64,000 nucleotides of DNA from Squalus acanthias (GCA_030390025.1 CM059431.1:121770001-121834000), one strand, 5' to 3'. Positions 3,349-56,863 are shown, numbered from the stretch's first letter. Notes: generated by a model not told the origin, from the sequence alone. Translations and numbers: made by a program.

Positions 3349-4032
3349 TCAAATGGCAGTGATATGGTCGCACAACAACTGCACATTAAGTGAGTGGTAG
3401 CCTTTGCGGTTACAGAACATCTTAGCATTGTTACACGGTGCCCATAAAGCCACGTGTGTGCGGTCGATGGCACCCTGCACCATGGGGAAGCCCGCCATCC
3501 TTGCAAAGCCACATACACACTCATTCAGAGAGAAGACAATGAAGTCCCTTCTCCTGGATTGGAGAGTCTCTGTGACCTCCCGGATGCAGCGATGGATGGT
3601 GAATTGGGAGATATTAGCTATGTCTCCTGCTGCAGGCTGGAAGGAGCCACTGGCAAAAAAGTTGAGGGCCACGGTGACCTTGAAGGCCACTGGGAAAGCC
3701 ATTGTTGCCCTGCTCTGCAGGTCTGGTTCCAGGAGGTGGCAGAGTTCTGTGACCACCTCCTTGGTGAAGCGGAGCCTCCTAGTACACTGCTCCTTGCTTA
3801 AGTGGAGGTAAGAGAAGTGCTCTCGGAAGACCCTAGGTGAATAAGGCCTCCTGCTGAGAGCCCTCCTAGCCTTCCTCCTCCTCCTCCAACATCTGTGAGC
3901 ATCTTGTCCTCTTCTTCGCTGCCTCCACTCCATCTCCTGAAGATACTCGAGCGTGAGGGGAACTGCAAGTACAGCTCCCATGACTGGGAGCAAGTGGTGT
4001 GAGCAGAAGCCTTTAAATGATGTTAAACCCAC
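3349..4032 (-). pseudogene. Truncated Harbinger (HARBI1-like) transposase, N-terminal half
   Basis: Motifs VTVALNFFASGSFQ, GFPMVQGAIDRTHV and NRKGYHSLNVQLLCD; the C-terminal half is missing. Confidence 0.85.
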
Positions 4033-4343
4033 TCTTGTGCCTTTATTCTTTCAGATAATCAGCCACCGCCTGCTCAGCCTGTCCCTCAGCCTTGTAAGGG
4101 ATTCCTGACCCTGCGTGTCTCGCAGCCTGTGAGATTCACGCGGCTCTGTGCAGCCTGTATGTCAGTGCGGGTCTAGGCCTGGTTGCCTGTTCTGGTCTCC
4201 AGCCAGTCTGGGAACACTAGACACACCTGTGAGTGGTTCGAATCACTCTCCCTTACGGTTCTAGACACTGGACTTAGATGCGAGAGCAGTAATGGAGATA
4301 AAACTCATGTAGACTTGGTTTGAATGGTACGAAATGGAAAATC

Positions 4344-4349
4344 TTTATT
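4344..4349 (-). terminator. Putative poly(A) signal AATAAA in the 3' LTR
   Basis: tttatt on the plus strand, about 250 nt from the LTR 3' end; present in all three LTR copies. Confidence 0.55.
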
Positions 4350-5146
4350 GCATGATACTTAAGATTATGAAATACATGTCATAAGCACAGATTAATGACA
4401 GTACAATCTTACAAACAGTTATATAGTCGATCTTAGGGAAACGAGGAACGAACGGCACAAAATAAATAGGGGCACACATTACAAATATCCTTAATCCTTA
4501 AACCCTCCCCTATCAATATCTATCCTAAACTAGATTCGTAGGATCTCGAGACTCATGCTCACCACTCGTGATAACTCGGAGAAATTCCGAATAGCTGATC
4601 GGATGTTTTTCACCGCAGCACCCACGTGTCGGTCAGGAGATCTCCTGGTCCCACTTGTTTACTTGCTTCTGCTGCTCCGGCTAGCAGGCTGGACCGTCTG
4701 CTGTGATGAAGACCTGTGTTGGTTGGTTTAACAGGTACTCTTGGAGCACAGTTGTCAATATCGTCGATGCAATATGTTTCGTTATAAGTTCGAAGAAGTC
4801 TTCCTGGCGAGGAAAACTTGGCTAATCGACCTACAGGCGCGGTCGGGATTTACTGACCGTGGCGATGGATATGGTCTTCCTCTCTTCTCATCTCATCTCA
4901 TCTCATCTCATCTCATCTCGGGCCTTTGGTTCCGCTGCCAGTTACCAACATAGGTCTTCGTTACGCGACACGAGGTAGATCCGAACGGATCAGAAAGTTC
5001 AACAGTCTTTTCAGAAGAGGCAACAGGCAAGCAGAAGCCCAACTACGAGTACACAGGAGCAGCCACGAGGTTACGAATCGACCGGATAAAAGCACAGGAG
5101 CAAGAGAGCAAGAGCAAGAGAGCGAATGGACGGTTTGGAGCCTGCA

Positions 5147-5215
5147 ATTATAGTGCAAAAATCTTCCGTTTCCCGCCCAACTATAATGTCCATTCTTTTG
5201 TTTAAGGTTTGGCGC
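5147..5215 (-). promoter_or_regulatory. Putative LTR promoter: TATAAT, GC box and E2F-like sites (equivalent copy in the 5' LTR at about 12865-12933)
   Basis: Minus strand GGGCGGGAAACGGAAG...CACTATAATTGC followed by a pyrimidine-rich initiator-like tract; TTTCCCGC and TTTGGCGC match the TTTSSCGC consensus. Confidence 0.45.
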
Positions 5216-5754
5216 CCAAATGTCTTGTATGGGTGATCTCCGTTCTTAATGGGTTTCGGGGTTACTCGTAAATGTCTGAGTACCTGTTAATATTTCTCCC
5301 ATTGTTAAATCGGTCGGTGTTCTCCCTGGAGGGGTTTGGGGCTTCCAAGTGTCCTGTATAACTACCTGCTAACGGCTCTCTCATCGTAGAGTCGTTGGGA
5401 TTTTACATATTAATGTCTTTTGGATGGGCCCTTGATTACTCGGTACAATGGCTTTCCTTTGTACCTGGGAGACCGATTCCAGTATCTATGTTTATACTGC
5501 AAACCCATAATGTCTCGTGTATTATCTTCACTGTGCTGAATCTTAATCGATCTTGCACAAATGTTTATTGGAACGCCATCTTGTCTGCCTGTTGAAAAAG
5601 TCTAGAATGTTCTGTCACGAGGTGCGGCGGCCATTTTACAGGCTGCTTGTGTCCACTTTAAACTTGCCAGCATTCTACTGAAATAAAAGCTGTTTGAACG
5701 AAACTTTGTGTTTTCTCCTTATTAATAAAATCGCGATATATTGCGAATTCTACA

Positions 5755-5765
5755 GTCCCTCCTGT
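5755..5765 (-). other. Polypurine tract
   Basis: Minus strand ACAGGAGGGAC directly abuts the TG start of the 3' LTR. Confidence 0.8.
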
Positions 5766-6207
5766 TGATGCGAATAACTCCGCTTATCGTATCAAAAATC
5801 ATAGTGGTGAGCAATATTATCTCGATTTCTCTCCGAATCCAGTAAATTAATCCCATAATTTTAACTTAGCTAGGGTCTCTGTGTCGTCCTCATTTCACAA
5901 GAAGATTACATTTTATATCACCGTAGGCATTATTTGCCCTTAAACTTACACCACTTGTTTTCCTTCCCGGCGTAACCAGGCCGATGCCTCTCGTATCACC
6001 TGTATATTCATCTTTTATTCAGGGAAAGGAGAAACAAAACCCAAAACCAAACAATCATTTTTTTAACTATAACACCATCACCAAAATAAATCAACACCAA
6101 CTCTTAAAACATGTCGAGTTCCCAACGTATTTACAATCTCTGAAAATCATGATCGAGTACAAACTTCCGCGGCGCACGTGGCGAGCGGGAGTGACGCCAT
6201 TTTCCGA

Positions 6208-8559
6208 TTACACGGTGCTTTCATCGTGCACGCGCACGTAACGTTCTCGCCACTCTCCCGTGTTTTCATGCTTGGTGAGGCGTTTGTCTCTTTTACAATG
6301 TACGACCAATAGGTACACTACAATGAAAACTTGGCATACGACTAAAATGTGGGAGGCTATTCTGATCCATGAAGGTACTTCAATATTGGTGAACAGATTC
6401 CACCACGGTGGAACTACTATATCCAGAATGTCTGTTCCTATTTCGACAGTTTTCTGCTCTAATGTATAAAAATGTTTCTGTGATACCGCGACGGCTTTCA
6501 AAAGCTTGGTGAGGTGTTCAGGGAGAGGGGGAATGAGGTATCCAAAATGCGCGACGAATTGCTGCAAGTCGGTGAAATTCTCTTTTACTGTGAGATGAAC
6601 AGTGGATGGTTCAGGGATTGGGATAATTCGCTGTTGTGCTACTTGAACTTCCGCCCTGGGTTTAAAACAGAAACTGCTGTCACTCACCGGACACCGGCTA
6701 CGGTTTCCATGCTGGTAGTGTTGCGCTGCAGTGGTAACACAATATGTTCCACCCCCGATGTATGCTACCTGCGGAGGCACATGATCTTGTGCCATTGCCT
6801 CCATGGTGCAATTCATGGACTTGGCGCCAGCCGTTCTGAACCCGCACTGTGGTGTTAAAAAGGCATTCAAGTGCTGGGGGCACAGTATTATGTGTGCTCC
6901 CCTGCCACGACAACCAGAGAGATCTGTACCTGTCATCGTTTGCTCCCAGCGGATGACGTAAGGTGGAACCGCTGCATAACGAATGTGGGCTCCCCCCTGA
7001 ATGACACCGATGTTCTCTACCCGATATACCGGGGCGGGCTTTGCTGTGTCGCCCAAAACCGGCATACGTAAAACTATACCCATAATGGTATGGTTTGATC
7101 GTCCGCAGTCCACGGGGACTGGGTATGCTTCTGAAGCTAGCCTGAGCTGGCACGGGCTTAATGCGTTCTGAAAAGGGTGGAGCGCCCGTAGGTGTTTGTT
7201 ACTTATCCAGGACGGAACCAAACCTTGTTTTAAATCCTCCAAATTACTGCGGCCCTCGCCCAGTAACCACGCCCCGTAAAGCACGCACACCTCGTTCTGC
7301 GCAGCTTGATCGGATGCATTCCGATCTTCCCTAATCAGGGCATTTACCGTCTTTGCATGTTTCTCCAACTCTGCTATAATTTCCTTTAAATGGAGGGTCA
7401 TGGCTTGGTCCTCGTGTAGACCCGACCCTACCACTTTATTCTCATCTGTTAGAATGTCCTTTAATTGTGTCTTTAAACCATTAATCTGGGTCTGCAGCTC
7501 CACACTGTCTAGAGCGTTGACCACAGATGTACCTGTGTTAAAAGCAGTGAACGCATCGTTCACCAAACCCCTTCTTTGCCTCCCTACTTGATCCAAAACT
7601 TCCTGTGGCACGGTGTACAAACTTGTTTTATCAATTTCCGCGAAATCGAATTCGTAAAATTGTCTGAACATCTTGGTCAACAGGACCTGGTACAACTGTT
7701 CCGTCTTTTTGGGGCACCACTCTGGTAACCGTACCTCAGTGAGATTTAAAATCACCGAGGCCACCGCGTAATGTACCCCCTGAAATAGTATCTGGTCTGT
7801 GGGGACCAGTACCAAACCATTCCCGGGTCCCTTACTAGCTTTAGGGCACCCTTCTTCCTCAGCTAGAACCACCGGAATCGTGGGCGGGGCTTTGCGTGGG
7901 CGCGTAATGAGTTCAGTGGCATTTACTGGGATTGGGGAGAATGGGGCTCCGCACCCCCTGGTGCTCGCATCCCACCTCATCCCCTGTCCGTTATCCTGCC
8001 ATTGATTAATAAAAAATATGGAGATGCCTTTGGGGCAAACGTACTTTGACCCCCACATACATACATAAATTCCCTCATCCGGTTCCCACCATTTGTCCCA
8101 ACAGACTTTCACTTGTCCGTCTGTCCCCGTAATTGTCCGATGGGTATTATTACCCAGTCGTTCCCACTCGACCGAAGAGTTTCTCATAGTTTTGCTCAGC
8201 TTTCGCAGCCACCACCATCGGCTCAATGGGACCTTCCCACTACAAGTCAAACAAATCCGTTTGCCGACGGTGACGCTGATCCTGGGTGCGATGATCCTTA
8301 CTTTGGGGCACAGTAAAGAAGTCTCTTGGTAGGCAAACCCCGATGTGCTAGAATACTCCGTTGAGTTCGTTCCCAGCCATCCTGGCCACCTTCCCTTGTG
8401 GAAATAGGTGCTGGTCTCCTCTGCCTCCCGTCTTCCGGTCCCATCCACCGCGATGGGGGCCGTGTCCCCGGAACATCCAAACACCACGACATCCTTGGTG
8501 CGGCCTCGATAGGCCAATCCACATCCGATTGCCACGAGCAATACTAGAATTCGTTCCAT
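6208..8559 (-). CDS. env: Envelope glycoprotein (783 aa from the signal-peptide ATG): Ig-like domain, furin site, class I fusion protein with F-like Cys-rich region, TM anchor
   Basis: Signal peptide MERILVLLVAIGCGLA; C..W..DEGIYVC; RQRR|GLVNDAF at 7570-7581; heptad repeat; Cys-rich block TDLSGC...LCPQ...C...C; TM segment ILVVCQVFIVVYLLVV with a basic tail; several N-x-S/T sites; ORF is open. Confidence 0.9.
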   Translation of the reverse strand: MERILVLLVAIGCGLAYRGRTKDVVVFGCSGDTAPIAVDGTGRREAEETSTYFHKGRWPGWLGTNSTEYSSTSGFAYQETSLLCPKVRIIAPRISVTVGKRICLTCSGKVPLSRWWWLRKLSKTMRNSSVEWERLGNNTHRTITGTDGQVKVCWDKWWEPDEGIYVCMWGSKYVCPKGISIFFINQWQDNGQGMRWDASTRGCGAPFSPIPVNATELITRPRKAPPTIPVVLAEEEGCPKASKGPGNGLVLVPTDQILFQGVHYAVASVILNLTEVRLPEWCPKKTEQLYQVLLTKMFRQFYEFDFAEIDKTSLYTVPQEVLDQVGRQRRGLVNDAFTAFNTGTSVVNALDSVELQTQINGLKTQLKDILTDENKVVGSGLHEDQAMTLHLKEIIAELEKHAKTVNALIREDRNASDQAAQNEVCVLYGAWLLGEGRSNLEDLKQGLVPSWISNKHLRALHPFQNALSPCQLRLASEAYPVPVDCGRSNHTIMGIVLRMPVLGDTAKPAPVYRVENIGVIQGGAHIRYAAVPPYVIRWEQTMTGTDLSGCRGRGAHIILCPQHLNAFLTPQCGFRTAGAKSMNCTMEAMAQDHVPPQVAYIGGGTYCVTTAAQHYQHGNRSRCPVSDSSFCFKPRAEVQVAQQRIIPIPEPSTVHLTVKENFTDLQQFVAHFGYLIPPLPEHLTKLLKAVAVSQKHFYTLEQKTVEIGTDILDIVVPPWWNLFTNIEVPSWIRIASHILVVCQVFIVVYLLVVHCKRDKRLTKHENTGEWRERYVRVHDESTV

Positions 8560-8572
8560 CCTTCCTTGGTTC

Positions 8573-8600
8573 CTGTGATCAGATAGAATGAGGTAGCCAG
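8573..8600 (-). promoter_or_regulatory. Putative env splice acceptor
   Basis: Minus strand CTACCTCATTCTATCTGATCACAG|G lies 13 nt upstream of the env ATG. Confidence 0.5.
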
Positions 8601-8845
8601 CCTCGCAAGAGTCTCTGGCTTTTGTGAAGGGTGAGCGGGTCCCCTGACCTCGCCTCACGTAAACTTCAACGTTCGCTGAATAAACTTCAACTAAACCTAA
8701 ATTTAAAACTCCCATCATTTTATCGTTTTCTGTTAAAAACACTACAAACTTAACCTTATTAAAACTATAAACTTAACCTTGAACTATAAACTTACAACTT
8801 AAAACTTATTACTATACAGTGCCGCCCGTTCTCAGGGCGGCCCCT

Positions 8846-9994
8846 TTAAATTCTGAGAAGGCTGCTGCGAGCTCTTCCCGACGGTGGGAGGGCACTGACC
8901 CTTCCCTCTGATCTGCCGCAGCCTGTTGCTGCGCTGACCCTTCCCTCTGATCTGCCGCAGCCTGTTACTGCTGCGATGTGGCCGGTCTGTACCTGGGTTA
9001 TCTTAACCTGAAATTTTCGCCTTGGGGCAGTCTGGGGACATGACCACATCCTCCTGGGCTGGGGTTCTCTGCTTGACCTACGGGGAGTTGCTATGGGCGG
9101 GGGTTCCGTGACGGACGGACCGGGTTCCGAGACCTCCATCGGGATGACCTGGGGTTCCATCACAGTCGCCGGCTCCGCCTCCGCTGACTCCGCCTCCCTA
9201 ACCTCGGGGCTGGCAGTTCGTGGCTCCGCCCTGCTCGGCCCAGCAGGCGGCCCTTCACTCGTGATCTCTGCCTCCCCTGAGGACTGGACGTTCAAAGCGG
9301 GCGGCCACATCTCTGGGAGCCACACCGGTACTCTCTGTGCTCCTATAGCGGCTGGCCCTGCCTCCTCTAGCTCCTCCCTCCTGTCCTCGGGACCTGCAGC
9401 TTGTGTGTCCACCCTGTGTGGATCTCTACCTACAGCCCCCATTCCCTCCAGACCGTTCCTCAGGAACCACCCGTCATCATCACTATGCTCATCTGCACTA
9501 TCCTCATCTGACCAGGGTACCCTGAATTCTTCCTCATCTAACCCCCAATTCCAGAAAAACGCTGCACGATCGTCCGGGATGTCCCTTCCCCTGATGCAAG
9601 CTGCTATGCCTGCCTGTGTGCCTTGTGGTCCTACCTGGGGCTGTGCTTTCCCATTGGCGGGATTTACCCCTGTAGTTTTCCCCTGCGCACCTGGCTGGTA
9701 CAGTTTGCATTGGTTTACATCCTCATACTCCCGGCTTTTGGCTACCCTGTAGGCTGCTTTTATCTCTCTAAGCTGCGCTTCTAGCCTGAGCACGTCTAAC
9801 TTTCCCATTGCTCGGGCGTTCTCCTCCCGCAGGGCCTGCTCTCTAAGCTGCCCTTCCAGCCCATCTATTTTCCCTAATAAGCGGGCGTTCTCCTCCCGCA
9901 AGGCCTGCTCTTTTAACCTGGCCTCCTCACCGCAGACCCCCTCCTGTGCGTGTCTTTTAAAAGGACACAGGTAGGCAGGCTGCGTGGGCTCTAG
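8846..9994 (-). CDS. Unknown 382-codon ORF in the pol position, in frame with gag after UGA-CUAG (coiled coil, acidic, Pro/Glu-rich, basic tail)
   Basis: 31 stop-free codons (LEPTQPAYLCPFKRH...) link the gag stop to ORF 8846-9901 in the same frame; no protease, RT or integrase motifs. Confidence 0.7.
   Translation of the reverse strand, partial: LEPTQPAYLCPFKRHAQEGVCGEEARLKEQALREENARLLGKIDGLEGQLREQALREENARAMGKLDVLRLEAQLREIKAAYRVAKSREYEDVNQCKLYQPGAQGKTTGVNPANGKAQPQVGPQGTQAGIAACIRGRDIPDDRAAFFWNWGLDEEEFRVPWSDEDSADEHSDDDGWFLRNGLEGMGAVGRDPHRVDTQAAGPEDRREELEEAGPAAIGAQRVPVWLPEMWPPALNVQSSGEAEITSEGPPAGPSRAEPRTASPEVREAESAEAEPATVMEPQVIPMEVSEPGPSVTEPPPIATPRRSSREPQPRRMWSCPQTAPRRKFQVKITQVQTGHIAAVTGCGRSEGRVSAATGCGRSEGRVSALPPSGRARSSLLRI
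8895..8966. repeat. 39-bp in-frame tandem duplication encoding TGCGRSEGRVS twice
   Basis: ctgacccttccctctgatctgccgcagcctgtt at 8895 and 8934. Confidence 0.9.
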
Positions 9995-11806
9995 TCATTG
10001 GGTACTATTAGACGGTCCTGCGGCACCTACGGGGCCGGTTGCGACCGCCACCTGTCCACGCGCATTCAAGACCAGCTTGCGCATGGCTCCTAACACTGCT
10101 TCGAGGTCGTCGGGAGGGGTGGGTGCCTTGGCTTCCTTAGCCGGGACAGGCGCCTGGGCTCGGACCGCGGGATTTTTATCCTTGGAATCCTTCCAAGGGT
10201 TCCTGCAATGCTTGCGCCAGTGCCCTGTCTTCCCACACCCGTAACAAGCATTACTTGCCTGTGGGGCGCGATTACCCTCCTGATGCCACTCTCTTTGATA
10301 CGGGGCTGCGGGTCGTACCTCATGTACTCTTCCCTTAAGGGGACGTGTTGCCATACCCCTTATATTGCGATAACCTAACGTGAGTCGATTCAAGACCGAC
10401 TCTTCCGTAATGTTGGGGTCATTGGGATCAAACCATGCTTTTGCCTGTTCTCTAACGGCTGGTAAACTGTTGGCTATTATGCACCTAAGCCAATGAGTTA
10501 AAGCTAAACCTTCCACATCTTCGCGCTCGGGCGCACCTAGACAGCTGCGCTCATATACTGGCCACAGCCTGTCGGCAAAAACCTTCGGGGGTTCTCCCTC
10601 CATCTGCACTGTCTGTCCCACTCTAGCAAACGGACCTTCGTCGTTCGCCCCCAACACTTCCAGGACCTCATTCTTTAATTCCTCATAACTCTTGGTTCCC
10701 CTCTTGCTCTCGCCTGAGAGACACTGAAGGACCGAGCTGTCTAATGAGAACAGCAGCATTTTTGCTGTCTCCCCATCATCGCAGCCGTTAATGGCTGCGG
10801 CTTGCTCAACTTCTCTGAAATGTACGGAAGGGTCGTCTGCCTCGGTCAGCTTCCGTACGTGATTTATCATAGCTCTCAGCTGATGTGAACTGTGAGGCAA
10901 CACCAGCTGTCCGAGGAGATCCCCCGGTTCTTCCCCACCGTTTCTGCTTGGGCCCCTTTTAATACCCGTTACTGGATACAACGATCCCTTTTCTACTTCC
11001 TTTTCAATGGGCTCTTTTGTTTCTCCCATTGCTTCCTCCCTAACCCAGGTTTCTGAATAGCTGGGTGGCGCGGAGGGCGCAGTGGCTATTACTTCTTCTG
11101 CTTTACTTGGTGGGGATTTTCTAAATCTCTCATTTACTAGCGGCTGGTGCGCCGACGGATTGATAAGGCACACCATGCCGTTCGCATTGTTCACGGCCTT
11201 TTTGAGGTGCTCTATCTCCCTTTGGCAGGCGCTATGATCGGCTCCCTGAAACTTATCCTCAAGGGCCAACTTATATGCCGCCCTAACCCCCATTAAGCTC
11301 TCTTCTTGAGTTCTTATCTGGGCAGCTTGGCGGTTACATCTTTCCTTTAACCTGCTCTCATTCAATTTTGCCTCAGTGACCTGGCACTCGAGATAATCTA
11401 TCCTTGTTTTAAGGTGACTGGAGACTTCCTGGCTTTCTTGGTGTAACTCATTTAAATTCTTAATGAGCACCTCCCCTCCAGAAACCTTCTCCTCCATTTC
11501 TCCCTCTAAATGACTGATTCGAGCTACTAGCGCTGTAATGGTCTGGTTTGAAATCTGAACCTGCCTTTTGTAACACATAAGCCAGACTGCTTTCTCAAGT
11601 GTCTTTTTATGTTCTTTACTATCTGTCCACCTTTCAGCTGCCTCTAGTGGGCTCTTATCCGCTAACAATTCACTTATCCATTTCTTAGTTAGATTAACCT
11701 TTCCAAACACATAATCCGCTATCTTTTCCTGCATAACATTTCGTACAGTCATTCCAAAATCTAACACACTACCCTCTCGCTGCCAGTGTCCTGCCGCGGT
11801 CGCCAT
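9995..11806 (-). CDS. gag: Gag polyprotein (603 aa from the ATG at 11806)
   Basis: N-terminal coiled coil; PSAPPSY; capsid MHR-like QMEGEPPKVFADRL; zinc knuckle CYGCGKTGHWRKHC at 10205-10246; the start codon could instead be a downstream Met. Confidence 0.92.
   Translation of the reverse strand: MATAAGHWQREGSVLDFGMTVRNVMQEKIADYVFGKVNLTKKWISELLADKSPLEAAERWTDSKEHKKTLEKAVWLMCYKRQVQISNQTITALVARISHLEGEMEEKVSGGEVLIKNLNELHQESQEVSSHLKTRIDYLECQVTEAKLNESRLKERCNRQAAQIRTQEESLMGVRAAYKLALEDKFQGADHSACQREIEHLKKAVNNANGMVCLINPSAHQPLVNERFRKSPPSKAEEVIATAPSAPPSYSETWVREEAMGETKEPIEKEVEKGSLYPVTGIKRGPSRNGGEEPGDLLGQLVLPHSSHQLRAMINHVRKLTEADDPSVHFREVEQAAAINGCDDGETAKMLLFSLDSSVLQCLSGESKRGTKSYEELKNEVLEVLGANDEGPFARVGQTVQMEGEPPKVFADRLWPVYERSCLGAPEREDVEGLALTHWLRCIIANSLPAVREQAKAWFDPNDPNITEESVLNRLTLGYRNIRGMATRPLKGRVHEVRPAAPYQREWHQEGNRAPQASNACYGCGKTGHWRKHCRNPWKDSKDKNPAVRAQAPVPAKEAKAPTPPDDLEAVLGAMRKLVLNARGQVAVATGPVGAAGPSNSTQ
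11788..11805 (-). other. Primer-binding site, tRNA-Arg(UCG)
   Basis: TGGCGACCGCGGCAGGAC, 5 nt downstream of the 5' LTR, complementary to the vertebrate tRNA-Arg-TCG 3' end GTCCTGCCGCGGTCGCCA as I recall it. Confidence 0.85.
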
Positions 11807-11810
11807 TTTC

Positions 11811-13472
11811 TGTAAGGGATTCCTGACCCTGCGTGTCTCGCAGCCTGTGAGATTCACGCGGCTCTGTGCAGCCTGTATGTCAGTGCGGGTCTAGGCCTTG
11901 TTGCCTGTTCTGGTCTCCAGCCAGTCTGGGAACACTAGACACACCTGTGAGTGGTTCGAATCACTCTCCCTTACGGTTCTAGACACTGGACTTAGATGCG
12001 AGAGCAGTAATGGAGATAAAACTCATGTAGACTTGGTTTGAATGGTACGAAATGGAAAATCTTTATTGCATGATACTTAAGATTATGAAATACATGTCAT
12101 AAGCACAGATTAATGACAGTACAATCTTACAAACAGTTATATAGTCGATCTTAGGGAAACGAGGAACGAACGGCTCAAAATAAATAGGGGCACACATTAC
12201 AAATATCCTTAATCCTTAAACCCTCCCCTATCAATATCTATCCTAAACTAGATTCGTAGGATCTCGAGACTCATGCTCACCACTCGTGATAACTCGGAGA
12301 AATTCCGAATAGCTGATCGGATGTTTTTCACCGCAGCACCCACGTGTCGGTCAGGAGATCTCCTGGTCCCACTTGTTTACTTGCTTCTGCTGCTCTGGCT
12401 AGCAGGCTGGACCGTCTGCTGTGATGAAGACCTGTGTTGGTTGGTTTAACAGGTACTCTTGGAGCACAGTTGTCAATATCGTCGATGCAATATGTTTCGT
12501 TATAAGTTCGAAGAAGTCTTCCTGGCGAGGAAAACTTGGCTAATCGACCTACAGGCGCGGTCGGGATTTACTGACCGTGGCGTTGGATATGGTCTTCCTC
12601 TCTTCTCATCTCATCTCATCTCATCTCATCTCATCTCGGGCCTTTGGTTCCGCTGCCAGTTACCAACATAGGTCTTCGTTACGCGACACGAGGTAGATCC
12701 GAACGGATCAGAAAGTTCAACAGTCTTTTCAGAAGAGGCAACAGGCAAGCAGAAGCCCAACTACGAGTACACAGGAGCAGCCACGAGGTTACGAATCGAC
12801 CGGATAAAAGCACAGGAGCAAGAGAGCAAGAGCAAGAGAGCGAATGGACGGTTTGGAGCCTGCAATTATAGTGCAAAAATCTTCCGTTTCCCGCCCAACT
12901 ATAATGTCCATTCTTTTGTTTAAGGTTTGGCGCCCAAATGTCTTGTATGGGTGATCTCCGTTCTTAATGGGTTTCGGGGTTACTCGTAAATGTCTGAGTA
13001 CCTGTTAATATTTCTCCCATTGTTAAATCGGTCGGTGTTCTCCCTGGAGGGGTTTGGGGCTTCCAAGTGTCCTGTATAACTACCTGCTAACGGCTCTCTC
13101 ATCGTAGAGTCGTTGGGATTTTACATATTAATGTCTTTTGGATGGGCCCTTGATTACTCGGTACAATGGCTTTCCTTTGTACCTGGGAGACCGATTCCAG
13201 TATCTATGTTTATACTGCAAACCCATAATGTCTCGTGTATTATCTTCACTGTGCTGAATCTTAATCGATCTTGCACAAATGTTTATTGGAACGCCATCTT
13301 GTCTGCCTGTTGAAAAAGTCTAGAATGTTCTGTCACGAGGTGCGGCGGCCATTTTACAGGCTGCTTGTGTCCACTTTAAACTTGCCAGCATTCTACTGAA
13401 ATAAAAGCTGTTTGAACGAAACTTTGTGTTTTCTCCTTATTAATAAAATCGCGATATATTGCGAATTCTACA
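11811..13472 (-). repeat. 5' LTR (1662 bp)
   Basis: Direct repeat of 4093-5754, adjacent to the PBS. Confidence 0.97.
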
Positions 13473-16400
13473 GCCTCCCAGTGGCAGCAACGCTGGAGAG
13501 GAAGAGGAACAAGAAGCCAGAGCCTCACTGCTTGTGTCTCCCAAGGGCGAAAGGTCCAATAATGGGGTCACGCATTTGCTGGAGGGGGACCTAGGAAATG
13601 GGTCTGATGTGGGTGAAGCTCCGGGCCCTAGTGGGCTGCAGCAACACCACGGGAAAAGGGAAGCTTAGGGGCTATCTCCCTGGAGGGTGAGTGCACATGC
13701 GAGCTCTGCTGCACAGGACTCAGATGAGGACCTTGATGTGGAGGCGTTGACCACACAGGCGATGAGCATGCACACTGAGCTCATGGGTGCAATGGCAAGG
13801 GTGCCCGAGAGCATGGATGCACTGGCTAGGAGCGTGGAGGAGTCTGCCTCCAGCATTGCACCCATCTCTGCGCAAACCATCGATCCCATCCTTGGCAGTT
13901 TGCAAAGGATGGTTGCCTCGCAGAGAGACCGTGGGGACCCAGACCTCATGCCACGTGTCATTGGTGAGGTGGCAGCAGCTATTGCAGCACAGCCCAAAGC
14001 AACACAACAGCTTAGTGCTGTAATGGATGCAGTGGTTGGTGACATCTAATCTCAGACTGCTCTCATGCAGTCTCAGATTGATGCCATGCAAGCGCTGACT
14101 GCTGCCATCGTCGCTGGGTCGCCCTCAGTCCACCGGGGATCTCATGGTGCCGCAGCAGGCCAGCAATCTGTGCTTGAGCAGATTGCTCCGGATGCTGAGG
14201 TGCTGCCCCGAGGAAGTGGCAGTGTGTCGGTCGAGCAGGAAGGTGCTGTCCTCTCTCAGGATGACAGCATTCCTGCTCCCACCACTGCCACTCCGCCATT
14301 GCACTTGCCGCAGCCTGTAACCCAGCCATCCCGGACTGCTGCCGCCCATGCTGAGTTTGTGCAGTCTGCAGCTGGGCCTTACAGCCCTGAGGTGGCTGAG
14401 GGCGTCCTGCAAGGCCATCTGCAATCTCTGGCTCCCAGACTCAGCAGCCTTCCCCCAGCCTTGCCGCAGCCACTGGGGCCACATTACTGTGGAGCAGTAG
14501 GGTTGGGAGGGGGGGAATTGCAAAGGGGAGGGCAATCATTGAGGAAGGGCGAGTAAATAATACGTTATTAACAAATGGAGGGAATGTGTGTAAATAATTT
14601 GATGTGTTTGTAAATATATTGTTGAGTTTGGTAACAAATAGTTCCGTTTGCTAAGAAATATTTGTGTTTATTGATAAATTGTTGTGTTTGTTTATTAATT
14701 GGTTATGTTTCCTAAGAGAGAGTTGTGCATAATAATAAATATTTAATTCGACGTTGCACATTTTGTGATGTTTCTCATTTGAGCTTTGCCCGGTGATAGG
14801 GGCTGTGAGCTGGCTGTAATGATGTGGTTGTTCTACGCAAAGGCCATGTGCTGTCTCATTTATTGGAAGCGCTGTGTAATGAGGTGATCACGAATGGCCC
14901 TTGTAGAAGCAACATTGAGTGGCTCCCTCCTCTGTTGCTGCTGCTCCTCCTCCTCTTCATCCTCCTCCTCTGCCTCCTCCTCCTCCTTTCTTTCTTCCTC
15001 CTCCTGAGGTAGACCTCCTCAGTGGTAATAGCTGGGCGCTCGGAATGGCCAGGTTGTGCAGCATGCAGCACACAACAATGAAAAGGGAGACTCGATCAGG
15101 GGAGTACTGCAGGGTTCCTCCAGAGCAGTCAAGGCAGTGGAACAATTGCTTTAGCTCCCCGATAATCTGTTCGATCAGGTTTCTGGTGGTGCTATGGGTG
15201 TCATTGTACGCGTGCTGAGCAGGAGTGTTGGGGTTGTGGAAGGGTGTCATCAGCCAGGTTGCAAGTGGATAACCAATGTCTCCGAGCAGCCATCCGCAAG
15301 CTTCACATGGTGGGTTGAACAGTGTTGGGACTCCGGTCATTGACAGGGAGGATGCGCTGTCTGTGGTCGCACACCAACTGAACATTCAGAAAGTGGTAGT
15401 CTTTGTGGTTACGGAAGACCTCTGCATTGTGATGAGGTGCCCGCAATGCCACGTGGGTGCAGTCAATGGCGCCCTTAACCATGAGGAAGCCTGCTATCCT
15501 TGCAAAGCCACATGAGAATTCATCTTGTTTCTCCCTGGTAATGGGGAATGAGATGTACTCCTTTCTCCTTCTGTACAGAATGTCTATCACCTCACGGTTG
15601 CAGCAATGGATGGTGAACTGTTAAATGTTTGCAATATCCCCTGTTGAAGCCTGAAAGGAACCACTGGCGTAGAAATTGAGAGCGACAGTGACCTTCACTG
15701 CCACTGAGAGAGATGGCCTGGTCCTGAGATGAGGCTGGAACTCTCGCTGCAGGAGGTGGCAAAGCTCTGTGACCACCTCCTTGCTGAAGCGGAGCCTTCT
15801 AAAGCACTGCTCCTCTGACAGATGAATGTAGGAGAACTGCTCCCGGAATACGCTGGGAGGGTAAGGCCTCCTGTTGAGAGCCCTGTTGGCCCTCCTCCCT
15901 GTGGCCATGTTTTCCAATCTTTCTCTCTTCCCCCGCTGCCTCTGACAGTGATGCTGGAGGGTGAGGTCCAGTGCCAGTACAGCCCCCATTAAGTGTTGGA
16001 AATGTTGCACTATCAAATGTAACACAAATGAAAGTGATAAATTTTTCTCAGGATCAAAACTCCTTCAAGTAGAAAAAGCTCAGATCAGTAAAAACACCCG
16101 CCTGCTTCTGTCAAACTGACAAGGCAGCATTGTTTGCTGACAAAAAAAAAACCCTGAAGTTCACGACTTTAAATAGATTTCCTGCAACTCCCAGCCGACT
16201 GCAAACCGCCTCCTCTACCTGTTGTTCCTAATGGCAGGCGCTGAGGCAGGGGTCGACAATAAATTTCCGGTCTGGGGTGCTACCGGGGCGATGCACGGCC
16301 AGATGATGTTACGATCTCCAGCCGCAGGCAGGCATGGCGGTAGTGGTAAGCGCCACCGCAAACCGCCAGGTGAATTTTGCCGGCGGCGCCAACATCGCTG

Positions 16401-25019: not shown

Positions 25020-26642
25020 GGTGAAGCACTCCTCGATACGCTAGTCTATCAGCGCTCTGGTATAGAGGGGCACTGGTGGTCACTGCCTCTCTTCCTCCTG
25101 CTCCTCCTCCTCTTCCAGCTCCTTCTCCTCCTCCTATTCCTAGTCCTCCCCCTCTTCCTGTTCCTGGTCCTCCTCTGCACATGTTGCTGAATAGGATGTG
25201 GTGAAGGCTTATCCCTCATGATGGTGAAGTTGTGGAGCATGCAACAGACAATGATCTGGATACCTGTTTGGGGGTGTAGAGCAAGGCTCTTCCGGAACAG
25301 TCTAGGCAGCGGGAGCATTGCCTGAGCACACCAATTGTTTGTTCAATTCTGTTCGATGTGGCAGCATGACTTTGGTTTAGGTGTGCTGTGCACTGTGCAC
25401 AGCTTCCTGACAGTATTCATGAGCTATTTCCAGAGGGGATAGCCCTTGTCACCCAATAGCTAGCCTGCGGCCTGGTTATAATAAAGCTGGCACTGAGAAC
25501 TGGCACAGGATGAAAGAGTCATGACTGCTGCCAGGATAACGAGCACAGTCCTGCATAATGCACTGTCTGTGGTCGCAAACTAGCTTTCCGTTGAGGAACT
25601 GAAATCCCCTTTGATTGATAAAGATGCCAGGCTGGTGATAGGGAGCACCCAAGGCTAGGTGTGTGCAGTCAATGGCACTTTGCATCTGGGAAAGCCTGCC
25701 ATGTGGGCGAGACCAAGTGCTATTTTGCCCTGCTTTGCTCTGTCCATAGGCAAGGAGATGTAAGTGTTCCTTGGCGTAGAGAGCCTTGGTAACCTCCCTG
25801 ATATATCGGTGTACTGCGAACTGGGAGATGTGGCTGATGTCATCTGTTGCAGCCTGAAAGGAATCTGTTGCATCAAAGTTGAGGGCCATGGTAACCTTGA
25901 CAGCCACAAGCAGTGCTGTCCATGTCTTGGTGCGAGGCTCGAGTTGTGGCTGCAGCAGGTGACATAGCTCAGTGATATGCTACTTGGTGAAACGAAAGAG
26001 CCTGAGAAATTGCTCCTGAGTAAAGTTAATGTAGGAGAAGTGCTCCCTGAAGACCCTCTGTAGATACGGCCTCCTACGCAGTGCCCTCCTCCTCCTCCCT
26101 CTTCTAGCAGCTGTTTCTGCTCTGTGGTGTTTTCCTTGCTGCTCCCCCTCATCTACCAGTCCCGAAGGTAGCCCGATGAGACCACCCATGTCTGCAGCTA
26201 AGCTCTTTCTGAGGTAAACAACATCAGTGCAACATCAGCAAAATCTTGCTCTGTTTATACAAAGTGAACTTTCCAAAGTGATAAAACACACCAAAAACAT
26301 CCAGAATTTGAGTAGCAGCCTAAAATGAGAAACCAGCAACTAACCTGTAAGTACTGCATGATCCCCTTAAATAGTGCTGGCGAGGTGGCCTTCCGGTTAG
26401 TGCCATGTTGTGAATGAAGCGCTGGGACAATCATAAATGGAGACAGGGTCCTGCAAGATGCGCAGGACACTAATTTGAATCAGTTATTCTGGGCTTTAAA
26501 AGTTTCTGATGTGCAGTCCTGCCACCAGCGCATCTTCCGTTAGCAATATGGTGGTTGGCGCACTTCCTGTCCGTCATATTGGGAGCTTAGTATGCCGGTT
26601 AACACCCGAAAATCGAGCGCTGTGCAGCCAAATTTCTAGGCC
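25020..26642 (-). mobile_element. Decayed Harbinger: transposase pseudogene plus terminal region
   Basis: Motifs AVKVTMALNF, SAIDCTHL, ARYPGSSHDSFIL and VCCMLHNFTIMR; ends in AATTTCTAGGCC. Confidence 0.85.
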
Positions 26643-27113: not shown

Positions 27114-28811
27114 TGTAGAATTCGCAATATATCGCGATTTCATTAATAAGGAGAAAACACAAAGTTTCGTTCAAACAGCTTTTATTTCAGTAGAATGCTG
27201 GCAGGTTTAAAGTGGACACAAGCAGCCTGTAAAATGGCCACCGCACCTCGTGACAGAACATTCTAGACTTTTCAACAGGCAGACAAGATGGCGTTCCAAT
27301 AAACATTTGTGCAAGATCGATTAAGATTCAGCACAGTGAAGATAATACACGAGACATTATGGGTTTGCAGTATACACATAGATACTGAAATCGGTCTCCC
27401 AGGTACAAAGGAAAGCCATTGTACCGAGGAATCAAGGGCCCATCCAAAAGACATTAATATGTAAAATCCCAATGACTCTACGATGAGAGAGCCGTTAGCA
27501 GGTAGTTATACAGGACACTTGGAAGCCCCAAACCCCTCCAGGGAGAACACCGACCGATTTAACAATGGGAGAAATATTAACAGGTACTCAGACATTTACG
27601 AGTAGCCCCGAAACCCATTAAGAACGGAGATCACCCATACAAGACATTTGAGCGCCAGACCTTAAACAAAAGAATGGACATTATAGTTGGGCGGGAAACG
27701 GAAGATTTTGCACTATAATTGCAGGCTCCAAACCGTCCATTCTCTCTCTTGCTCCTGTGCTTTTATCCGGTCGATTCGTAACCTCGTGGCTGCTCCTGTG
27801 TACTCGTAGTTGGGCTCGCTCCTGCTTGCCTGTTGCCTCTTCTGAAAAGACTGTTGAACTTTCTGATCCGTTCGGATCTACCTCGTGTCGCGTAACGAAG
27901 ACCTATGTTGGTAACTGGCAGCGGAACCGAAGGCCCGAGATGAGATAAGATGAGATGAGATGAGAAGAGAGGAAGACCATATCCATCGCCACGGTCAGTA
28001 AATCCCGACCGCGCCTGTAGGTCGATTAGCCAAGTTTTCCTCGCCAGGAAGACTTCTTCGAACTTATAACGAAACATATTGCATCGATGATAACTGGACT
28101 GTGCCCAAAGTAACTGGAACGTGAAAACATATCGTATCGACGATATTGACAACTGTGCTCGAAGAGTACCTGTTAAACCAACCAACACAGGTCTTCATCA
28201 CAGCAGACGGTCCAGCCTGCTAGCCGGAGCAGCAGAAGCAAGTAAACAAGTGGGACCAGGAGATCTCCTGACCGACACGTGGGTGCTGCGGTGAAAAACA
28301 TCCGATCAGCTATTCGGAATTTCTCCGAGTTATCACGAGTGGTGAGCATGAGTCTCGAAATCCTACGAATCTAGTTTAGGATAGATATTGATAGGGGAGG
28401 GTTTAAGGATTAAGGATATTTGTAATGTGTGCCCCTATTTATTTTGTGCCGTTCGTTCCTCGTTTCCCTAAGATCGACTATATAACTGTTTGTAAGATTG
28501 TACTGTCATTAATCTGTGCTTATGACATGTATTTCATAATCTTAAGTAACATGCAATAAAGATTTTCCATTTCGTACCATTCAAACCAAGTCTACATGAG
28601 TTTTATCTCCATTACTGCTCTCGCATCTAAGTCCAGTGTCTAGAACCGTAAGGGAGAGTGATTCGAACCACTCACAGGTGTGTCTAGTGTTCCCAGACTG
28701 GCTGGAGACCAGAACAGGCAGCAAGGCCTAGACCCGCACTGACATACAGGCTGCACAGAGCCGCGTGAATCCCACAGGCCACGAGACACGCAGGGTCAGG
28801 AATCCCTTACA
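27114..28811 (+). mobile_element. Solo LTR (1698 bp) of the same family as 4093-13472, in the opposite orientation
   Basis: Reverse complement of the proviral LTRs; TGTAG...TTACA ends; ACAT TSD at 27110-27113 and 28812-28815. Confidence 0.97.
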
Positions 28812-53367: not shown

Positions 53368-55408
53368 ATGGAGAGGGTGAGAGAACGCGCTCATCACTTC
53401 ACCGAGCGGGCCTTGGATGCTCTGGTTGACGCAGTGGAGCGCAGACGATGTATGCTGTTCCCTGAGAGTGGCAGGAGGCCTTTGCCACGCGAGTTCAGAA
53501 GAGTGTGGAGGGAGGTGGCTCAGAGCGTCTCCTCCAGGAGCATGGTGCCCAGGACCCATACTCAATGCCGCAAAAAGTTCAACGACCTCACTCGGGTCGT
53601 CAGGGTGAGTGGCTTTTTCTCAATACCTCTCCATCCCTCCATCTCAACCTCACTCTATGGCCAGAGGGTCTTAAAACCCCAATGCACAACACTCATCCAA
53701 CACCTATGGCCCTTTCATCAAACACACACACACATTCCACACTTTGCATACAGTAAGGGCTATTCACCTATGGGAGGCACATCAGGCAAGACCATGGCTG
53801 TATATTGTAAGGGCTATTCACCTATGGGAGGCACATCAGACAAGACCATGGCTGTATATTGTAAGGGCTATTCACCTATGGGAGGCACATCAGACAAGAC
53901 CATGGCTGTATATTGTAAGGGCTATTCACCTATGGGAGGCACATCAGACAAGACCATGGCTGTATATTGTAAGGGCTATTCACCTATGGGAGGCACATCA
54001 GGCAAGACCATGGCTGTATATTGTAAGGGCTATTCACCTATGGGAGGCACATCAGGCAAGACCATGGCTGTATATTTACTCAGATGCTGTCCTTTTTCTT
54101 GCAGGCTAAGCTGGCTCATAATAGGAGACAGCAGCAACGGACAGGTGGAGGGCGGCTTCAGCTGCAACCCCTCAGCGATCTGGAGGAGCGCGTCCACAGG
54201 ATTGTGGCAAGCCGGGTGATCGGTCCCGTCGCCACTGGAGACGCCGACCCCGTTCTGGACAGCAATGGTAAGGTCATCACCTTTTTGTCCTCTGTCCTTC
54301 CACTTGTCCCTCACAACACCAGCCTTTGACACTTTCAATCCAACTTGCTAACTCGCTGCACTTATTCCTCCCTTACTGCCACCCTGTCCTCACGCTAAAG
54401 CCACTCTTGTACCTCCCTGCTTTCAGATGGTGATTCACCAGCTGAGGAGACGGGCCCTGAAGCTGCCACTGGGAGTGATGCTGCAGCTGAGGAGGAAGAG
54501 GAAGCCAGAGCATCAGTGCGACCCTCTCCCGAGGAAGCCCATGCCCACACTGGGAACACGCCTTCCCCGGAGGGGAGCAGGGGGGAAGGGGCTGATGATG
54601 GTGAAGCTCCAGGACCCAGCGGGCTGCAGCGACGCCATGGGGGGGGGTAGGGGAAGAACGGGGGCCTTCTCCCCAGAGGGAGAGTATGCCAGACACTCCT
54701 ACTGCAATGGACGCAGAGGAGGAGCGGCTGATTGCAGAAATGAACACCCAGGCGGTGGGCATGGACACTGAGCTCATGGGTGCAGTGGGAAGGGTGCCCG
54801 ATTGCATTGAGTCACTGGCAAGGAGTGTGGAGCACTTCGCTGTAGCACAGGCGGATGCCACACTAACGCTTAGTGCTGCAATTCAGTCACTGGCTGCCGT
54901 GATCCCACCTCTGACTGCTCTCATACAGACTCAGATGGAGGCCACGCGAGCACAGACTGCTGCCAACCTCGATGGTTCGTGCACATGTCCCCGGGGCTGA
55001 CACCGCGCCGCAGCAGGCCAGCAATCTGTTCTCCGGCAAATTGCTCCGGATGCTGAAGTGCTGCCCCGTGGGAGTGCCAGTGTGTCGGGCGAGCAGGGAG
55101 TTGCTGGCCTCTCTCACGATGACAACATTCCTGCTGCCAACACTGTCACTTCTCCACTGCACTTGCCACCGCCTGTAGGACAGACTGCTGCCGCCCATGC
55201 AGAGTTGGTGCAGTCTGCAGCCAGGCCCTCCAGGCCCAGAAGTGGTCGAGGCCGTCCTTCAGGGGCATCTGCAGTGTCAGGGTCTGACGAGCAGCAGCCT
55301 TCCACCAGCCTTGCTGCAGCCACTGAGGTCCCATTACGGAGGAGCAGTAGGGTTAGAAGGGGGGAAGTGCGCAAGGGAAGGAGATCACCCTCGAAGGGCA
55401 AAAAGTAG
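53368..55408 (+). pseudogene. Harbinger Myb/SANT-like DNA-binding protein gene, 3 exons (53368-53604, 54105-54267, 54427-55408), disrupted
   Basis: FTERALDALVDAV...W..VA...RTHTQCRKKFNDL; GT-AG introns in matching phase; frameshift in the G9 run at 54639-54647 and an in-frame TGA at 54998-55000. Confidence 0.85.
53753..54076. repeat. 54-bp minisatellite, 6 copies, in Myb intron 1
   Basis: Unit gtaagggctattcacctatgggaggcacatcag(a/g)caagaccatggctgtatatt. Confidence 0.97.
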
Positions 55409-55702: not shown

Positions 55703-56863
55703 CTAGAAGCGGCTTGCTATTAGTCGTTGACGGACGGCCCTTGCAGTTTGACCATTGTGGGCCGCCCTCCTGCCTTGGTGCTGCTGATGATCATCGTCCT
55801 CGTCCTCTTCCTCCTCTTCCTCCTCCTCCTCTGGTGGTGCTACAAGGCCTGGTGGCATTGGCTGGGTCCTGAGGATTGCCATGTTGTGCAACATGCAGCA
55901 CACGACTACGAAGTTCGAAACTTGCTCAGGCGAGTACTGCAGGGCTCCTCCGGAATGGTCCAGACAGCGGAACCGTTGTTTCAGCACGCCGATTGTGCGC
56001 TCAATAATGTTCCTGGTTGCTTGATGGCTTTCATTGTACCGCAGCTCAGCAGGGGTGTTTGGCGTACGGAGCGGTGTCATCAGCCAGGTGCTCAATGCGT
56101 ACCCCTTGTCCCCCAGAAGCCAACCAACTGGCTGATGCGGTGCCTCGAAAACTTCTGCCACAGTAGTCTGGCGCAGGATGAAAGCATCGTGGCAGCTGCC
56201 CGGATAGTGGGCATTGACAGCGAGTATCACCTGTCTGTGGTCACAGACCAACTGCACATTCAAGGAATGGAACCCCTTTCTGTTCCTGAATTCCTCTGCA
56301 TTCTCTCGCGGAGCACGCAAAGCCACATGCGTGCAGTCAATGGCGCCCTGCACCATGGGGAAGCCCGCTACCCTCGCAAAGCCCAGAGCACGGTCACGCT
56401 GCTTGTCTGGGGTCATAGGGAAAGAGATGAAGTCTCGTCTCCTTCTGAAGAGGGCATTGGTGACCTGCCGGATGCAGCGATGCACCGCAAACTGGGAGAT
56501 ATTGGCGAGGTCCCCAACAGCAGCTTGGAATGAGCCAGTGGCGTAGAAGTTCAAAGCCACTGTGACCTTCACTGCCACCGACAGAGACGTCCTGGACCTC
56601 AGCTGAGGCTGCAGATCTGGCTGCAGCAGGTGGCAGAGCTCAGTGACCAGCTCCTTGCTGAATCGCAGCCTTCGCAAACACAGCTCCTCGGACATATGGA
56701 TGTAGGAGAGCTGTTCACGATATACCCTGGGAGGGTAAGCTCTCCTGTACATGCGCCTGATGGCCCTCCTCCGTCTGGCCATCATTGCCACTCTCTGTCT
56801 GCGTCTTGGTATCCTCCGATTCAGCTGGAGCAGGACGAGGCCCCCAATCATTGCAGCCCCCAT
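55703..56863 (-). CDS. Intact Harbinger DDE transposase (HARBI1-like, 386 aa)
   Basis: GAIDCTHV, NRKGFHSLNVQLVCD, YPGSCHDAFIL, GDKGY and RNIIERTIGVLKQRFRCL in an uninterrupted ORF. Confidence 0.95.
   Translation of the reverse strand: MGAAMIGGLVLLQLNRRIPRRRQRVAMMARRRRAIRRMYRRAYPPRVYREQLSYIHMSEELCLRRLRFSKELVTELCHLLQPDLQPQLRSRTSLSVAVKVTVALNFYATGSFQAAVGDLANISQFAVHRCIRQVTNALFRRRRDFISFPMTPDKQRDRALGFARVAGFPMVQGAIDCTHVALRAPRENAEEFRNRKGFHSLNVQLVCDHRQVILAVNAHYPGSCHDAFILRQTTVAEVFEAPHQPVGWLLGDKGYALSTWLMTPLRTPNTPAELRYNESHQATRNIIERTIGVLKQRFRCLDHSGGALQYSPEQVSNFVVVCCMLHNMAILRTQPMPPGLVAPPEEEEEEEEEDEDDDHQQHQGRRAAHNGQTARAVRQRLIASRF

Follow-up and report, generated by a model that had tools for sequence, protein, structure and literature searches.

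Does an envelope protein (Env) built like the fusion (F) proteins of paramyxoviruses and pneumoviruses place an endogenous retrovirus (ERV) among the lokiretroviruses? The question is raised by a 64,000-nucleotide stretch of the Squalus acanthias genome (GCA_030390025.1 CM059431.1:121770001-121834000; hereafter the window), which holds on its minus strand an ERV copy with two long terminal repeats (LTRs) flanking gag, a 382-codon frame and env. A sequence-only reading had taken the element for a relative of lokiretroviruses, a group defined by reverse transcriptase (RT) phylogeny as sister to canonical retroviruses (PMC7947760). An F-like Env has been regarded as a trait of lokiretroviruses that canonical retroviruses lack (PMC7947760, PMC9040795) and as a foamy virus trait, orthoretroviral Envs being assigned to a class Ia of their own (PMC11468914); where retroviral Env came from is an unsettled question. 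We conclude, with a probability of roughly 80%, that the ERV in the window is a copy deleted for pol from a recently amplified, deep canonical lineage that is neither lokiretroviral nor gamma/epsilonretroviral, and probably not foamy, with an Env of class Ib. Direct observations underlie this conclusion for the anatomy of the provirus, the fold of Env, the position of RT outside lokiretroviruses, the copy number and the purifying selection on env.

An F-like envelope protein

On the minus strand, no stop interrupts the env frame between 8772 and 6208 (854 aa from stop to stop), and Env residues are numbered along this frame. Judging from the sequence, env likely starts at M72 (position 8559), just before a hydrophobic signal peptide. 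The features of Env are as follows:

6208-8559, minus: env, 783 aa, open
8509-8559, minus: signal peptide, by hydropathy only
8059-8298, minus: probable Ig-like domain of the N-terminal module, by weak Pfam and Foldseek signals
6373-7848, minus: F-like fusion module, with an F2-like part of 93 aa before the cleavage site and an F1-like part after it
7570-7581, minus: furin-type site RQRR (aa 398-401), a basic site aligned across relatives
7510-7569, minus: fusion-peptide-like segment (aa 402-421), mean hydropathy 0.68 (moderate)
7228-7506, minus: heptad repeat A region (aa ~423-515), helices in the model
6667-6912, minus: Cys-rich beta domain, six Cys in aa 621-702
6295-6372, minus: transmembrane anchor (aa 801-826), followed by a 28-aa tail

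The cleavage site, fusion-peptide-like segment, heptad repeat, Cys-rich block and anchor follow one another in the order that the sequence-only reading had given for 6208-7600, which corresponds to aa 391-854. In heptad repeat A, 56-59% of the residues at the best a/d registers are hydrophobic; about 285 aa, including the Cys-rich block, lie between the heptad region and the anchor, and 399 aa separate RQRR from the anchor. A pattern scan of Env found neither CX6CC nor an LQNRxxLD-type immunosuppressive motif, although the same patterns were found in four of four gamma-type Env frames, which bears out the earlier remark that CX6CC and CKS-17 are missing. Env has a CXXC at aa 174-177, within the N-terminal Ig-like part, and the traits of gamma-type Env (CX6CC with an immunosuppressive domain, short transmembrane subunit) are absent from it. 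An N-terminal module of ~220 aa precedes the F-like module; neither it nor the lack of pol in this copy is mentioned in the sequence-only reading.

To obtain a structural model, aa 305-800 were aligned with 33 of 51 relatives and two cluster members; relatives that are chimeric gene models or N-terminal pieces, and some that are short fragments, were left out. The resulting model (predicted local distance difference test, pLDDT, 69; predicted template-modelling score, pTM, 0.56) had 142 Foldseek matches in PDB at E<=0.001, the best of which were the F proteins of human parainfluenza virus 3, respiratory syncytial virus (RSV), Newcastle disease virus and henipaviruses (best E 2.6e-10, template-modelling (TM) score 0.43). 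Among the matches listed, all are paramyxo/pneumovirus F proteins or stabilised class I fusion designs, save the foamy Env 8RM0 at rank 31. Furthermore, VIA aligned 334 residues with Langya F (Z 12.6, root-mean-square deviation (rmsd) 12.4) and 310 with foamy Env 8RM0 (Z 9.7, rmsd 5.5), and the F-like alignment spans residues 12-425 of the predicted monomer, crossing the cleavage site. Identity to any Mononegavirales F is 7-15%; sequence searches miss F, and the likeness to F is shown by structure. Env is almost certainly an F-like fusogen, and the model places it in the F-type (class Ib) fusogens, with a predicted F-like three-domain core formed from both sides of the cleavage site. The Foldseek and VIA results agree with the sequence-only reading in likening Env to paramyxo/pneumovirus F and not to the gamma-type transmembrane subunit; its lokiretrovirus label did not survive, as described below.

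Within a viral structure library, the top Foldseek matches were lispivirus and thamnovirus glycoproteins, and the Envs of WEHV1 (walleye epidermal hyperplasia virus, WEHV; E 3e-6), feline foamy virus (3e-4) and walleye dermal sarcoma virus (WDSV; 8e-4) were also matched; no gamma-type transmembrane subunit is among the matches listed, and the Env of snakehead retrovirus (SnRV) is not named among the best 50. A search of ESM Atlas with the whole env gave one chordate cluster (0.84), which is a lead only. Lispivirus, thamnovirus, paramyxovirus and baculovirus proteins interleave in the library, with baculovirus F at ranks 8, 10, 15 and 18, so that the alternative raised by the sequence-only reading, a baculovirus-type F, is not separated from Mononegavirales F by the predicted structure. 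In addition, one env relative matches Baculo_F at E 0.001, under the cut-off. Both results are on the side of an env-bearing Ty3/gypsy element of errantivirus type with a baculovirus-like F, and F-type env is indeed widespread in gypsy elements (bioRxiv 2023.10.26.564294). It is pol that decides on this explanation.

A canonical reverse transcriptase

The RT used as query belongs to a pol-bearing family member; it was placed in a quick tree of 76 rows and in two further trees of 36 and 33 rows, all built from chosen subsets. Among 120 homologues, some of which bear the automatic annotation 'NYNRIN-like', four Loki-type RTs and one SnRV RT were labelled by eye, by motif against the alignment of Wang and Han; the SnRV record (10,688 nt) agrees with both the motif-labelled RT and the published SnRV length, and the WDSV record (12,708 nt) was assigned by RT text and length. 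The motifs of the family RT agree with the SnRV row of these alignments, not with their Loki rows (PMC7947760). A clade of canonical retroviruses including the query RT was recovered with support of 98 (76 rows), 100/98 (36) and 99/97 (33), and gypsy and Loki RTs fall outside it in all three trees. Approximately unbiased (AU) tests rejected the grouping of the query with Loki (p 0.015 and 0.004 in two tests) and with gamma/epsilonretroviruses (p 0.023), the query lying outside the gamma/epsilon clade (100/96, 33-row tree). The nearest kin are frog and coelacanth ERVs (87/93; 92/82), with 51-53% identity. Among 18 viral records found, SnRV RT has the best identity, 44%, and in the 36-row tree SnRV and the query sit at an open fork. 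The safe statement from these sequences is that the RT represents a deep canonical lineage, shared with frog and coelacanth ERVs and organised like SnRV.

The gypsy explanation is refuted by the RT tree, in which two branches with support of 99-100 stand between the query and gypsy RTs, and the family has a tether and a retroviral RNase H; we regard it as extremely improbable. A lokiretrovirus in a new host class would be supported by the Env, which has the features described for the F-like Env of lokiretroviruses, from the signal peptide, the RxxR site and the fusion peptide to the coiled coil and the transmembrane segment (PMC7947760), and by the dual RNase H of the family (tether plus new RNase H), the coiled-coil Gag and the pol-less derivatives, which recall zebrafish BHIKHARI; by eye, the start of Loki-Bsp Env also resembles that of the F module. 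However, all retroviruses have a dual RNase H, which is hence not diagnostic, the F core of Loki-Bsp Env, again by eye, directly follows the signal peptide with no 220-aa module in between, and the RT motifs, trees and AU tests largely refute a lokiretroviral origin, which we consider very improbable. The affiliation proposed in the sequence-only reading is thus not supported; its statement that cartilaginous fish were outside the listed hosts is, as none of six chondrichthyan genomes had lokiretroviruses (PMC7947760, Fig. S1). A search of the text of the lokiretrovirus supplement, limited by line breaks and partial text, turned up none of four 12-mers back-translated from the env relative of Xenopus tropicalis; a frog Loki Env given there differs by eye from this relative.

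Env kinship across retroviruses

A search of 1.8 billion representatives with env yielded 51 relatives. The 22 looked up for their source comprise 14 from sharks or rays, three from frogs, two from coelacanth and three unnamed; all named ones with more than 50% identity are from sharks or rays, the closest being from skate (76%) and sawshark (up to 74%), and the distant ones (19-31%) are from frogs, coelacanth and several shark orders. By this distribution of relatives, the host is likely a cartilaginous fish. Sixteen near-identical env relatives are found in Mantella aurantiaca, which suggests another recent burst of the Env family. Moreover, env is carried by 20 of the 24 sequencing runs listed, from eight studies and five organisms, and contigs of one such organism cover env and the insert region (see below) with few differences. 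No RNA dataset bearing env is among the runs listed, and the contigs, whose flanks are repetitive, yielded neither a splice joint nor an empty-site joint that could be used.

The profile of the Env family extends to named viruses. WDSV Env (5962-9648 of its record) scores 37.2 bits against a maximum of 4.2 in 200 shuffles, and hhalign aligns it with the family over 348 columns (96.5%, E 9e-10). SnRV Env (6131-9535 of its record) scores 13.5 bits (shuffled maximum 3.2; hhalign 54.8%, E 1e-4), with ~21% identity to the window Env, foamy Env 7.6 bits (shuffled maximum 4.3) and five other Envs at most 4.8. WDSV and SnRV Envs align colinearly with the family, sharing the Cys-Pro start, the cleavage site and the Cys block. 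Independently of the family alignment, a segment of SnRV Env has Fusion_gly F0 as its top ESM Atlas cluster (score 0.91); by eye, the N-terminus of SnRV Env shows an Ig-like Cys/Trp pattern. By these profile comparisons WDSV Env is homologous to the shark ERV Env family and probably an F-type fusogen, and SnRV Env, the C-terminal half of which looks F-like, probably belongs to the same F-like family. It follows that several lineages of canonical retroviruses have an F-type Env, and an F-like env does not diagnose a lokiretrovirus. The literature searched yielded no mention of an F-like Env in WDSV or SnRV and no account of this shark family; supplements and figures beyond its scope may hold one.

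These relatives bear on whether the env joined to a canonical gag-pol is a recent acquisition, captured either from a lokiretrovirus or from an RNA virus of negative strand. Env swaps are frequent among retroviruses (PMC9967133, the references of which include a class III ERV with a class I env), and the best matches in the viral library were lispivirus and thamnovirus glycoproteins. However, the 19-31% relatives occur in the same hosts as the nearest RTs, the colinearity of WDSV and SnRV Envs extends from the Cys-Pro start through the Cys block, and the identity to any Mononegavirales F is 7-15%. As frogs and coelacanth supply both the nearest RTs and env relatives, a long association of RT and Env is indicated, and recent capture is very unlikely.

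A foamy-like (spumaretroviral) ERV of cartilaginous fish would fit the shared Env fold, and the grouping of the query with foamy RT was not rejected (p 0.12, with one long-branched foamy RT); the family RT scores 183-196 bits against foamy RT structures and 206-212 against gamma RT structures. Foamy viruses are not known to have a CCHC in Gag or to express Pol by Gag-Pol read-through. The CCHC knuckle, in-phase gag-stop-pol and tRNA-Arg primer of the shark family differ from foamy traits, and in the foamy record examined gag and pol overlap out of phase. Furthermore, the extra Env module is N-terminal here and inserted between the subunits in foamy Env, whose score against the family profile is low. 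This explanation is highly improbable.

The provirus and its family

The window copy is organised as follows:

11811-13472, minus: 5' LTR, 1662 nt, TG...CA ends
4093-5754, minus: 3' LTR, 1662 nt
4089-4092 and partner 13473-13476, no strand: target-site duplication, 4 bp
11788-11805, minus: primer-binding site complementary to tRNA-Arg(TCG), 5 nt past the LTR and overlapping the gag ATG
9995-11806, minus: gag, 603 aa, with an N-terminal coiled coil, a middle part that is putatively capsid-like and one CCHC knuckle
9991-9997, minus: gag stop in UGA-CUAG context, the pol frame running on in phase
8846-9994, minus: pol remnant, 382 codons, made of 32 nt of pol start, a 245-nt Gag-like insert (9718-9962) and a post-integrase Pol tail
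5756-5766, minus: polypurine tract upstream of the 3' LTR
27114-28811, plus: solo LTR of the same family in opposite orientation, with its own 4-bp duplication, ~98.6% identical

The LTRs are 99.8% identical (4 mismatches, 0 gaps), and their divergence of 0.24% corresponds to 0.55 million years if a mammalian rate is applied, and to 5.5 million years with the rate that PMC4422223 assumes for sharks. The primer-binding site pairs with tRNA-Arg(TCG) genes found in the same genome. A tandem array at C26:38.99-42.2 Mb, with a period of ~1623 nt, matches the 3' end of tRNA-Arg(TCG); there are 424 matches genome-wide, and one unit also contains tRNA-Ser(GCT). Gag is 50% identical to a skate zf-CCHC protein. 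Its stop codon is presumably read through into the pol frame, UGA-CUAG being a type II read-through context (PMC13517186).

The window copy is without protease (PR), RT, RNase H and integrase (IN). One pol-bearing locus encodes PR, RT, tether, RNase H and IN, so that the family has the LTR-gag-pol-env-LTR layout in its pol-bearing members. Compared with this locus, the window retains 32 nt of pol, followed by the insert, a Gag-like coiled coil with an internal 90-nt duplication, and the Pol tail (window 8846-9717), a Pro/Glu-rich stretch of ~290 aa past the SH3-like domain of integrase with a short tandem repeat near its end. The 382-codon frame was also considered as an smc-like accessory gene, a candidate rejected in favour of pol remnant plus insert, the best BLASTP match being a related Gag at E 6e-6. 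The Pol-tail frame is open past the insert in 14 of 15 deleted copies examined, and read-through in such copies could yield a Gag fusion without enzymes.

At least 57 open env copies with 99-100% identity are present in the 3.7-Gb genome. Fifteen of the 20 best env loci have the same deletion junction as the window, and five run upstream into integrase; the junction is found at 40 or more genomic places, as is RT. By these sequence comparisons the family is young and recently amplified. In three places env copies lie ~7.7 kb apart (C7:29046441/29054163, C7:117257578/117265335 and C352:58900/66596), a spacing equal to one LTR plus the internal region, which points to arrays in which the deleted form is repeated in tandem. 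The genome also contains other pol-bearing families of this kind that are more diverged.

Selection was assessed in 12 of 40 junction copies, plus-strand rows picked by non-env DNA. In eight of the 12, env is without stop or indel; shared env variants comprise 76 synonymous and 14 non-synonymous changes (omega ~0.055), and private ones 72 and 44, respectively. A count of 66 synonymous versus 7 in the first 20 loci was set aside, since these loci had been chosen by protein score. By these substitution counts, env has been under purifying selection and was kept functional during the spread of the family, in deleted copies or in recombining helpers.

The window contains further repeats. A remnant of a DDE_Tnp_4 (Harbinger-like) transposase adjoins the provirus at 3349-4050 and recurs at 15335-15898, 25772-26101 and 56209-56772; elsewhere, the spans 347-901 and 53691-54122 hold a fragment of LINE RT (Pfam RVT_1 at E 3e-27) and a tandem repeat with a 54-nt unit.

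Weighing the assignment

Several results speak against the assignment to a canonical lineage with a class Ib Env, or against parts of it. The Env model is moderate, with pLDDT below 50 in the fusion peptide and the C-terminal part, and whole-chain TM-scores are only 0.3-0.47. Pfam detected neither Fusion_gly (PF00523) nor TLV_coat in env, nor Fusion_gly in 29 relatives, so that the profile comparison proposed in the sequence-only reading failed on the F side, its structural counterpart having F structures on top, and gave no gamma-type match either; in PDB, phmmer and profile searches with env found no match below E 0.9. For the N-terminal module the signals are weak (Pfam Ig_3 at E 0.09-0.5; Foldseek matches to antibody and T-cell receptor chains at E 0.048 or worse), and with a pLDDT of 39 over the N-terminal 213 aa the modelled fold is too poor for a firm assignment, an Ig-like domain being probable. 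BLASTP of Env against SnRV Env (E 0.06 or worse) and WDSV Env (0.17) is not significant. As to the exact position of RT, in the tree with a foamy RT added (33 rows) SnRV falls in a 96/95 group without the query, and the union of the query clade with SnRV (p 0.19), like that with foamy RT, was not rejected; moreover, the trees contain only two to four Loki-type RTs and one foamy RT, labelled by eye. The frog and coelacanth env and pol proteins may come from different elements. Finally, deleted copies differ more in env than at the junction, so the selection signal may stem from env recombined in from helper genomes.

Proposed function and implications

By analogy with RSV and paramyxovirus F and with foamy Env (PMC11468914), Env would trimerise and be cut by furin at RQRR, its N-terminal part staying woven into the head. 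A trigger would then free the fusion peptide for insertion into the membrane, and heptad repeat A and a membrane-proximal helix would zip into a six-helix bundle, leading to membrane fusion. More tentatively, the 220-aa Ig-like module may bind the receptor, because there is no separate attachment gene. Pol-deleted copies may spread by complementation in trans, a named route (PMC10435555), their genomes being packaged with the read-through Gag-Pol of pol-bearing members and re-entering the germ line via Env.

F-like Envs have been published for lokiretroviruses (PMC7947760), foamy viruses (PMC11468914) and gypsy elements (bioRxiv 2023.10.26.564294). The shark family adds a retrovirus that is canonical, probably not foamy, and equipped with an Env of class Ib, and it ties the unexplained Env of WDSV to F: the profile of shark, frog and coelacanth ERV Envs connects WDSV Env, and probably that of SnRV, with an F-fold Env. 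The F-type envelope would thus be more widespread among retroviruses than the literature searched describes. That some orthoretroviruses use class Ib fusogens is a testable claim, and the many near-identical open env copies make structure and expression studies practical; an F-like env alone should be treated with caution as a mark of lokiretroviruses. It is conceivable, if rather doubtful, that an F-type (class Ib) protein is the ancestral retroviral Env, with gamma- and beta-type Envs as later replacements and lokiretroviruses, foamy viruses, walleye epsilonretroviruses, SnRV and the shark-frog-coelacanth lineage as survivors. If so, the shark family would exemplify this Env in a virus that was infectious until recently and is present in more than one host species, and scenario 3 of Wang and Han (PMC7947760, Fig. 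5A) would be favoured over the independent origin preferred in PMC9040795.

Comparison with known systems

The shark family resembles SnRV in its in-phase gag-stop-pol, coiled-coil and CCHC-bearing Gag and tRNA-Arg primer, traits not exclusive to SnRV, and in an Env with a long N-terminal module followed by a probable F-like module. It differs in the stop context (UAG-GGC in SnRV, UGA-CUAG here), in Env size (1134 codons with a 136-aa tail versus 783 aa with a 28-aa tail) and in RT, that of SnRV not being recovered as sister of the query in the 33-row tree. SnRV-like retroviruses are characterised by spliced accessory ORFs as well; ERVs of this type have been described as clade Huo (PMC6001957) and, in chondrichthyans, as CmiERV lineage I of the elephant shark (PMC4422223). 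With WDSV and WEHV the family shares gag-pol read-through, which is presumed for the family, and WDSV Env is the best-scoring named-virus Env for the family profile, whereas the family RT lies outside the gamma/epsilon clade; WDSV Env has been called distinct and recent, with no fold named in the part of PMC9967133 cited here. Lokiretroviruses, including BHIKHARI, are marked by an integrase closest to CGIN1 and have a similar F-like Env layout, dual RNase H and pol-less derivatives, but differ in RT clade and in that the extra N-terminal Env module is found here; BHIKHARI-2 is without env, whereas the deleted shark copies retain it. Foamy Env (8RM0; PMC11468914) has the class Ib core shared with paramyxo/pneumovirus F, but its receptor-binding domain lies between the subunits, it has two transmembrane segments, and foamy Gag and pol expression differ. 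Finally, the paramyxo/pneumovirus F proteins (1ZTM, 3RKI, 8TVE) are the best structural matches and have the same order of F2, cleavage site and F1, from which the shark Env is set apart by its low sequence identity, its added N-terminal module and its being encoded by a provirus.

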